Assembly (NCBI GenBank): GCA_017347485.1
Contig: AP021857.1
Location: 1,219,390 to 1,283,389 of the forward strand
Length of the DNA stretch: 64,000 nucleotides
Direction of reading: 5' to 3'
From: Candidatus Desulfobacillus denitrificans
GTDB lineage: Bacteria; Pseudomonadota; Gammaproteobacteria; Burkholderiales; Rhodocyclaceae
Positions 34,516 to 35,729 of this stretch are shown here, in pieces. The position numbers and the translations under genes are program-made. Under the pieces are notes generated by a model that saw nothing but the letters and a program-made list of their open reading frames with translations, made no database searches and had not been told where the DNA came from. The stretch's first letter is position 1. The number at the start of each line of letters is the position of its first letter.

Positions 34516-34760
34516 AAGCGGTGCTTTCGGCCAGGAGCGGCCGCCCGCAGTTGCCATCCCATTTGCGTAGTGGCAGCATGAGGGACGGCAAGCAGCAAAA
34601 GGCGGCGTGCGCGATTTCGTTAATGATTTGGGCGCTACGAAATATGGCTAACCGGTTGATGTGTCGATACTCGAATACCAGTAAGATCTTTTTAGCCATC
34701 GCAAATGATGCAAAACAATCCGTCGTTTAGGCCGCACACTTCTCGTTGGGCCTCACACCT

Positions 34761-35153
34761 ATGAAGCCACGCCACCTACTTATACTTGCGGCAACGCTTG
34801 TGCTGTCTTTGCCGGCGGATGCAAGAGATACCGCAAGACAGTTTCTCGGTCGCTGTGAAATGCTCGAAAGCTCGCCTTCCACAGTAGGCCCGAGCGATCG
34901 TCAGTTCTTCGCCGGCTATTGCATCGGGGTAATCCAGGGTGTTTCAGACGGTGCAACCTATGCGGTCAATTTCATGCGCGGCTCAGGCCGCCTACGTGAA
35001 TCACGCGATCTATTCTGCATTCCACCCGAAGTACCTAAAGGCAAGATTGCGAAGGTTCTGATCGACTATGGCAAAAGACATCCTGAACTGCTGGATGGGC
35101 CTGACATAGCTCTCATCCCGCTCGCTCTTGCGGAGACCTACCCATGCAAATAG
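34761..35153 (+). CDS. Secreted Rap1a/Tai-like immunity protein
   Basis: Signal peptide; GYCIGVIQGVSD, FCIP, YGKRHPELL, LALAETYPC pattern recognised from the Rap1a family. Confidence 0.72.
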   Translation: MKPRHLLILAATLVLSLPADARDTARQFLGRCEMLESSPSTVGPSDRQFFAGYCIGVIQGVSDGATYAVNFMRGSGRLRESRDLFCIPPEVPKGKIAKVLIDYGKRHPELLDGPDIALIPLALAETYPCK

Positions 35154-35653
35154 TCACCGCCTGGAGGAACATCTTGTTAGCCCTACGTCGATTTGCGCCT
35201 TCAATTTTTCTTGCGTCGTTGCTTTGGCTATCCACCGCGAACGCGGCAGACAACTCAACATTCTCCGTCAGTCTCGCGGGTGTCCATCCCGTGCTTTGGA
35301 GCGACTTCGATCCACTCAAGAAGAACATGTCCGCATGCATATCCGACGGAAAGATGAATTCGCCAATCTGCCAGAAGGTTCAGGACACTATGGCTGTTCA
35401 ACTTTCTGACGCATTGCTACACGCGGTCATGACCAATGCCACCGCGAGGGGCGCTGAACCACGCTTCTGCGACACCTATGCACTTGAGCTAGTCAAGAAA
35501 CAGAGGCAAGGCGATCAAGCCGCTTATGCCATATTGCTGATCGATGGGCAAATCAAGTATGGCTCGGCGCTCTACGGAAAAGACCTACCCGGAACGTATC
35601 TAGCAAAACTGGTGTTTGACGCTTTAGTGAACCAGAGTCCATGCAAGCAGTGA
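35144..35653 (+). CDS. Hypothetical secreted Cys-containing protein; alternative TTG start at 35174 after GGAGG
   Basis: Signal peptide ending ANA-A; four Cys; C-terminus LVFDALVNQSPCK. Confidence 0.7.
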   Translation: MQIVTAWRNILLALRRFAPSIFLASLLWLSTANAADNSTFSVSLAGVHPVLWSDFDPLKKNMSACISDGKMNSPICQKVQDTMAVQLSDALLHAVMTNATARGAEPRFCDTYALELVKKQRQGDQAAYAILLIDGQIKYGSALYGKDLPGTYLAKLVFDALVNQSPCKQ

Positions 35654-35662
35654 ATCCGCGAG

Positions 35663-35729
35663 GCCCAACCCATCATTCCACCGGACCTGCGCGAAAATCC
35701 GCGCAGGCCGGTGAATTCAAACGTTAATC
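35663..35729 (+). mobile_element. attC recombination site (67 bp)
   Basis: GCCCAAC-CCATC-ATTC(C)ACCGG(A)CCTGCGCG-AAAATC-CGCGCAGGCCGGTGAAT-TCAAAC-GTT; unpaired C and A correspond to extrahelical G and T on the bottom strand. Confidence 0.9.

Follow-up and report, generated by a model that had tools for sequence, protein, structure and literature searches.

About half of the attC clusters found in genomes have no integrase nearby, and their origin is debated: integrase loss, rearrangement, and off-target insertion at attG sites have all been proposed. Clusters of attC sites lacking integrases (CALINs) are explained by loss of intI or by rearrangement (Cury et al. 2016, PMC4889954), and single attC sites lacking integrases (SALINs) by attC × attG insertion into host DNA (Loot et al. 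10.1101/2022.09.11.507474). Here we describe an integrase-less locus with one attC and one 978-bp gene cassette in Candidatus Desulfobacillus denitrificans, lying in a 64-kb stretch (the window; G000:C1:1219390-1283389, G000 being the 3.1-Mb genome under study). We consider it probable that this is a bona fide cassette in the first position behind an attI-type docking site (the platform) that has no integrase gene and is bracketed by repetitive extragenic palindromic (REP) sequences, and that the recombinase is the IntI of the chromosomal integron. Six elements of this reading are directly supported: the identity of the attC, the limits of the cassette, its mobility, the absence of the whole unit from the empty site, the recurrence of the platform, and the difference in cassettes between near-identical platform copies. 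What appears to be new, from the sequence comparisons below, is an integrase-less and dispersed attI platform that would exchange cassettes with the main array.

The locus resembles SALINs and CALINs in that a single attC accompanies a cassette while intI is absent for tens of kilobases around but present elsewhere in the genome, and IntegronFinder would call it a SALIN. However, whereas SALINs are defined as having no other att site nearby (10.1101/2022.09.11.507474), here a conserved, dispersed attI-like site abuts the cassette. With the genome's own sedentary chromosomal integron (C1:1793986-1803270) the locus shares the attC family, the G|TTRRRY junctions, an R'' complementary to the cassette's own 5′ end, a hybrid last attC, an attI-like core, a variable first cassette, and low GC content. 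It differs in having neither intI in cis nor a recognizable remnant of it, a very short array, inverted REP brackets, and occurrence at several loci. A complete integron has intI adjacent to attI, and the locus is therefore no complete integron. In the blaGES-5 integron mobilization unit and the class 1 integrons of Acinetobacter that are flanked by miniature inverted-repeat transposable elements (MITEs), cassettes or whole integrons reportedly lie between MITEs derived from insertion sequences, with target-site duplications. Here too integron parts lie between two inverted repeats, which suggests mobilization in trans, and the platform occurs, as a MITE-like element should, in several copies in different contexts (at least eight). 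Its ends, however, belong to the host's own abundant REP family, with no duplication or cognate transposase found.

The cassette (34746-35723, forward strand) extends from the TTGGGC of a GTTGGGC core (34745-34751) to the G of R' (35723), the right-hand crossover base. The earlier note on this DNA, made from the letters alone, had placed a G/TTGGGC at 34745 and given the size as 978 bp, and both statements hold. The attC (35663-35729, forward strand) is 67 bp long; it begins with R'' GCCCAAC (35663-35669), the exact complement of the 5′ core, and terminates in GTTAATC (R' G|TTAATC, 35723-35729). When folded, its bottom strand gives a long, imperfectly paired hairpin, one arm of which has two bulges of a single base each, T and G (-19.7 kcal/mol; z = -3.0 relative to shuffles), in agreement with the two extrahelical bases noted earlier. 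It thus has the features by which attC sites are recognized: inverse cores R''/R' (GCCCAAC...G|TT) flanking a hairpin with extrahelical bases. That the cassette's TTGGGC (34746) is complementary to its own R'' (35663) follows a rule that holds along the main array as well.

A covariance model built from nine attC sites of the main array, with the orphan attC excluded, recovers the orphan site in a whole-genome search at 66.5 bits (E = 1.4e-14); the note's reading hung on such a match to an attC model. This is the one match within the window and the only strong match outside the main array, the other being weak and located at 2.89 Mb. An Rfam scan of 34200-35950 returned no attC-type match and one chance snoRNA-like match below threshold. 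Two array attCs match the orphan site closely by BLAST: that at C1:1800613-1800675 with 98% identity over 63 nt, and that at 1799162-1799221, which stands behind an OXA-9-family cassette, with 95%.

The cassette is present in a single copy in the genome, and it is found 100% identical in two metagenome contigs (SRR17578869 and SRR29092744). What stands before it in both contigs is not the upstream sequence of the window but the 3′ half of a different attC, one of the array attC 3 type. Variants with 90% and 74% identity, also on metagenome contigs, each stand behind yet another attC. In each of these four upstream settings (the window's platform and three attCs that differ from one another) the change of sequence falls precisely at G|TTGGGC, which shows the cassette to be a real, discrete, and recently mobile unit. 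The window's right junction is repeated in contig GCA_013328895. The metagenome contigs with homologs of the second cassette gene (ORF2, below) are ∼1 kb long and end inside attC stems.

The sequence upstream of the cassette, the proximal part of the platform (34541-34745, forward strand), has the crossover G (34745) as its last base. We found 13 copies or partial copies of the platform: that of the window, five in relatives, and seven in metagenomes. The copies in G002 (two loci), G019, G016, and seven metagenome contigs are 76%-80% identical, and together the copies occupy at least eight different genomic contexts in several species and in metagenomes, with a VOC-family gene, a hydrogenase, a methyltransferase, and a membrane protein among the host genes upstream. 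Eight of the copies reach a GTT and then diverge into unrelated cassettes, most of them with attC matches downstream. What identifies an attI in practice is a conserved stretch reaching to the crossover with variable cassettes behind it, and judged by these alignments the platform behaves as one.

The two parts of the platform differ in what they resemble. The right ∼115 bp resembles the true attI of the main integron, with the common pattern TGAYGSAnnACnnnnCGTCnTTTAGGCnGCnCACTTnnnG|TT. When we searched the whole 3.1-Mb genome with an nhmmer profile made from four platform copies, the best non-self match was the true attI (1795010-1795079), in the correct orientation and with its crossover GTT in register (E = 0.023). 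The core common to the platform and the true attI, TGACGGAnnACnnnnCGTCAnTTAGGCnGCnCACTTnnnGTT, recurs in the attI of G008 and G015, in which IntI is 95% and 77% identical to that of G000, and is missing in the attI of more distant IntI types. From these similarities we infer that the platform descends from an attI. The left ∼90 bp (34541-34630; TTGCCATYCCATWTGCGTAGTGGCAGCATG...GCAAGCAGCAA) is the most conserved piece and is seen with 12 other copies (L020-L024, L056-L062), including copies without the attI-like right part (G016, G019:C8, L057, L060, and L062). This block could be a promoter or a protein-binding hairpin; a strict sigma-70 scan found no cassette promoter (Pc), and the same conserved block contains a weak TTGCCA-17-CAGCAT. 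Two other identities for the platform were tried and rejected: It is not an attC or a cassette (no match to the covariance model and no RYYYAAC partner), and a derivation of its left 90 bp from the start of intI is unsupported (the DNA shows no similarity, and a translated comparison by eye was unconvincing).

Relatives of the same genus provide the empty site that the earlier note had proposed to look for. In these genomes the flanks nearly abut, G010 having 3 bp between them, G017 28 bp, and G002 58 bp. Homology with the relatives stops on the left at ∼34301, within the first REP copy, and restarts on the right at ∼35770-35783, in the outer part of the right-hand long REP unit. The segment missing in G010, G017, and G002 is therefore 34302-35770, larger than the cassette alone (34746-35723). 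The note had also allowed that the region might prove syntenic and conserved; it is instead an insertion relative to the syntenic relatives.

The extent of the missing segment bears on the classical explanation of SALINs, namely, off-target insertion by IntI into a secondary site in host DNA (attG, GWT or GWTMW). The earlier note named this possibility first, reading the right junction as a fit to GWTMW. The junction G|TTAAT does match GWTMW, both SALINs and insertions at genomic GWT sites have been documented (bioRxiv 10.1101/2022.09.11.507474), and the genome does encode an integrase at another location, as the note had supposed. The pentamer, however, is expected by chance about once per 128 bp. 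Moreover, insertion at attG requires host DNA on both sides that is contiguous in the empty site, but the left 205 bp with its long REP unit and the right TTAATC with its long REP unit are all missing there. At other loci these non-host flanks reappear as one unit around different cassettes, and the left junction is a full GTTGGGC-type core following an attI-like motif. We consider off-target insertion highly improbable: the integrase elsewhere in the genome stands, and the secondary site does not.

The right junction has a different source. The last attC of two modules in G002 is followed by GTTGATGGTCCGC and ATTGATAGTCCGT, which are homologous to the window's GTTAATCTTCCGC, and in the window and both G002 modules the sequence after the attC runs directly into an inverted copy of the long REP unit. 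By this homology, G|TTAATC is to be read as the platform's own distal half, the second half of its attI core (TTAATC plus TT; 35724-35732, forward strand), and not as a host secondary site. The last attC would then be a hybrid, its final six bases coming from the original attI, as in any integron. The empty platform can be reconstructed as ...CACTTCTCG|TTAATCTT... between inverted arms of ∼52 bp, with a total length of ∼320 bp. The left junction (platform-G/TTGGGC) together with the right junction (attC-G/TTAATC) is the expected product of attI × attC recombination.

Different cassettes occur behind near-identical copies of the platform. Contig Ga0116142_10000028 is ∼98% identical to the window over 462 bp comprising a REP copy, a helix-turn-helix (HTH) fragment (described below), the long REP unit, and the whole platform, and it departs from the window right after G|TT. 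Its first cassette is a 90%-93% homolog of cassette 9 of the main array, including the attC, and another cassette comes next. On this alignment Ga0116142 corresponds, as far as its upstream side goes, to this locus in a close relative whose cassettes differ but come from the same pool. A third cassette, of 2.3 kb, follows a near-identical platform in contig WBZR01013814. The platform arrays of G002 comprise two to three cassettes, compared with one at the window's platform, and have mutated cores (GGCTAAT, TTTGAC, and ATTGATA). The IntI proteins of G002 are of other types, and its core mutations would fit decay in the absence of a cognate integrase.

We next considered the second origin that the earlier note had offered, the relic of a deleted integron, in which an integron once complete at this locus lost intI by deletion and kept attI and one cassette. 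This came closer than off-target insertion, since the platform is attI-like; CALINs are thought to arise partly through loss of intI (PMC4889954), and the genome has another decayed orphan array at ∼2.89 Mb. There is, however, no remnant of intI: A TIGR02249 search finds none in the window, and the platform profile has no similarity to the 5′ end of intI. The same left end (long REP unit plus 90-bp block) is present in at least eight contexts, which independent deletions would not yield, and neither intI (TIGR02249) nor a remnant of it lies beside any of the 13 platform copies. Also, the syntenic slot in other species contains no integron. The recurrence of an intI-less platform with the same left end argues that intI was not lost in place; the deleted-integron proposal is in this respect too simple, and we regard it as unlikely.

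Rearrangement, the other proposed origin of CALINs (PMC4889954), would make the locus a fragment of the main array (attC-cassette-attC) that was translocated by REP recombination or by another element, with no attI involved. REP copies do bracket the block, and one array attC matches the orphan site at 98% identity. Yet such a fragment would bring with it the upstream attC half, as seen in the metagenome contigs described above, and the sequence to the left of the cassette is not an attC (no match to the covariance model) and is not found in the main array. We give this origin scarcely any credence.

We therefore return to insertion at the platform and to the recombinase that it would require. 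The only integron integrase of the genome (C1:1793986-1794927) is an intact open frame of 326 aa that scores 492 bits against TIGR02249 (cut-off 265). It adjoins a low-GC array of ∼8 kb with 11 attC sites and is located 539 kb from the orphan cassette; the same genome-wide TIGR02249 search found no intI in the window. The absence of intI reported in the earlier note is thus confirmed, and the search that it recommended for intI and sister attC sites had a positive outcome. Because array attCs are 95%-98% identical to the orphan attC and the true attI contains the platform's core motif, the IntI of the chromosomal integron is the likely recombinase, and it would act in trans on the platform. 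Under this model, the cassette would have been excised from an array by attC × attC recombination and then inserted at the platform by attI × attC recombination, both steps being performed by this single integrase from 539 kb away. Integron integrases acting in trans on att sites of other molecules are established laboratory practice (10.1101/2022.09.11.507474). The data suggest that several satellite sites of cassette capture can share a single chromosomal integrase. If IntI does work in trans on the platform, integrons would be multi-site systems, and orphan cassettes could be placed beside ordinary operons and perhaps be coexpressed with them.

Several observations weigh against this reading. 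The homology between the platform and attI is modest (E = 0.023; pairwise z = 3.9), and the case for it rests mainly on register, position, and behavior. The window's platform has two mismatches in a GACGGA/TCCGTC palindrome that is kept by the other copies. No cassette-free platform was found among the 401 family genomes, genome contigs, and metagenome contigs; in this same set no platform was found beside intI. The identification of Ga0116142 as the same locus applies to the upstream side only, 1.4 kb of the 201-kb contig having been compared, and homologous replacement through the flanks, with no action of IntI at the locus, could be behind the cassette differences between strains.

The REP sequences that bracket the platform are a host repeat family. 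The REP-type repeat (core GTCAGTCnGCGnnGnACGGCG; for example, 34275-34302, 34489-34516, and 35757-35781) has dozens of near-identical copies in the genome, and its loose core pattern has ∼500 matches in 3.1 Mb. A longer form exists, with the extension ...TTTCGGCCAGGAGCGG. The left long unit (34489-34540, forward strand) consists of the REP core and an extension ending TCGGCCAGGAGCGG and abuts the platform; it matches C1:1392363-1392414 at 94% over 52 bp, and it precedes the platform in G002 and G019 as well. The right long unit (35733-35783, reverse strand) is an inverted copy of it, as indicated by alignment (32 of 51 bases match, counted by eye) and by the inverted repeat of the REP core (34275-34302 with 35757-35780). 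Terminal inverted repeats are thus present: The right ends of three modules (the window's, G002-363k, and G002-2053k) align with the reverse complement of the left long units of the window and G002-363k. We considered TCGGCCAGGAGCGG as a mark of the border of foreign DNA but did not adopt this; two of its three exact copies head the two orphan arrays, but long REP units also occur at ordinary sites.

These arms raise the possibility of a wider family of elements. It is possible, although we put this forward tentatively, that the platforms belong to a family of mobile integrase-less attI modules (∼320 bp when empty, with inverted REP ends) that have spread through this Rhodocyclaceae genus, to many intergenic positions, as satellite capture sites served in trans by one IntI. 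No target-site duplication was found at the module ends. In this genome no RAYT-type or other cognate transposase was found; the only Y1 transposase is IS200-like (2921187-2921543), has other hairpins, and is not flanked by these repeats. Since REP copies are very abundant in the genome, recombination between REPs is an alternative to transposition for the spread of the platform. If the family is real, satellite modules would account for some of the SALINs and CALINs now ascribed to off-target insertion or to integrase loss. The locus itself, with unusually clean evidence from nature, already points to a fourth route to integrase-less attC clusters, namely, a portable attI-like site lacking an integrase that trades cassettes with the main array found in its population.

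The surrounding slot is variable among relatives. GC content drops from ∼70% to 52%-54% across roughly 34520-35850. The first REP copy (34275-34302, forward strand) lies just 3′ of the stop codon of an FMN-dependent dehydrogenase gene. Between this copy and the direct copy at 34489-34516 is a decayed fragment of the C terminus of an XRE/HTH antitoxin-like protein (34283-34459, forward strand; Pfam HTH_3, E = 3.8e-5), high in GC and without a start codon; it is identical in contig Ga0116142 and is missing at the empty sites of G010 and G017. The intergenic slot holds a PIN/VapBC-like toxin-antitoxin pair in G007 (L010 470-1500) and a membrane-transporter-like gene in G012 (L011 540-1500), and is thus an insertion hotspot just upstream of a conserved FNR box. 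In G002 (C1:843-867 kb) and G017 (C32:47-69 kb) an integron integrase lies ∼20 kb from the syntenic empty slot, compared with 539 kb in G000.

The FNR-type box itself (TTGATcagaATCAA; 35785-35798, forward strand) is a palindrome located 55 bp past the attC, at the distance that the earlier note had estimated. A promoter-like TTGTCC-18-TATAGT, found by the promoter scan (35817-35846, forward strand), serves a CoA-ligase-like operon that starts at 35922. Both are intact and are conserved also in relatives without the insert. The FNR promoter is untouched, and the cassette lies upstream of the regulatory region and not within it.

The cassette carries two open reading frames (ORFs), which had been described as low in GC and promoterless; the GC content of the block is indeed 52%-54%, and the promoter scan finds no sigma-70 consensus promoter within the cassette. 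ORF1 (34761-35153, forward strand; 130 aa) belongs to the Rap1a family of immunity proteins for T6SS (type VI secretion) amidase effectors of the Tae4/Ssp type (Pfam PF18602; score 52.7 bits, cut-off 27.7; E = 6e-14) and has an N-terminal signal-peptide-like sequence, MKPRHLLILAATLVLSLPADA, as expected for a protein exported to the periplasm. ORF2 (forward strand) has its longest frame at 35144-35653, from an ATG, although a start at the TTG at 35174, behind a GGAGG, is more likely and gives 159 aa (35174-35653). It has a signal peptide and four conserved Cys and is predicted to be all-helical. No match to ORF2 was found in Pfam, NCBIfam, or PDB, and the pLDDT of its AlphaFold2 model is 44. 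Only three homologs were found among 5.8 billion proteins, each downstream from ORF1. A relationship between ORF2 and ORF1 was considered and rejected (hhalign probability 0.2%). The dN/dS ratios (0.12-0.16 for ORF1 relative to metagenome variants, and 0.12-0.29 for ORF2) indicate that both ORFs are under purifying selection.

From the Pfam family match, the likely role of ORF1 is orphan immunity against amidase effectors injected by neighboring cells. We detected no TssB, the sheath gene of the type VI secretion system (T6SS), in the genome; nor did we find Tae4, although the control for the Tae4 search gave no signal either. The setting recalls the acquired interbacterial defense (AID) and recombinase-associated AID (rAID) clusters (bioRxiv 10.1101/471110), which likewise combine an orphan immunity-like gene that has no cognate effector with a capture system serviced by a recombinase, here in a genome without a detectable T6SS sheath gene. 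The difference is that we are dealing with a classical integron cassette in a betaproteobacterium and not with a Bacteroidales rAID array, and with immunity predicted from a Pfam match. An orphan T6SS immunity-like gene would thus be added to the known cargo of environmental integrons.

Other cassettes and low-GC segments of the genome were seen in the course of the searches. One cassette of the main array (C1:1798271-1799226) encodes an OXA-9-family class D beta-lactamase (NF040532, 633.5 bits; cut-off 575), and at the DNA level, attC included, it matches clinical blaOXA-9 cassettes in 554 plasmid records with ∼92% identity. The integrons of this environmental genus may be near the source pool of the OXA-9 cassette. 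The final cassette of the main array (L007 9657-10270) carries a HigB/HigA-like toxin-antitoxin pair and closes with R'' GCATAAC alone, without a full attC; a REP copy comes next. The second, decayed orphan array (G000:C1:2889700-2892000, minus strand) is low in GC and contains two attC sites, of which one ends in GTTGGGC and the other is degenerate (R'' GCCCAGC, no GTT; 30.7 bits with the covariance model), and the array is headed by TCGGCCAGGAGCGG, the motif that also heads the platform. Finally, a low-GC patch at G000:C1:1184900-1185800 contains a truncated tyrosine-recombinase-like frame with a weak TIGR02249 match (E = 9e-4) and begins directly after another long REP unit, ending TCGGCCAAGAGCGG.

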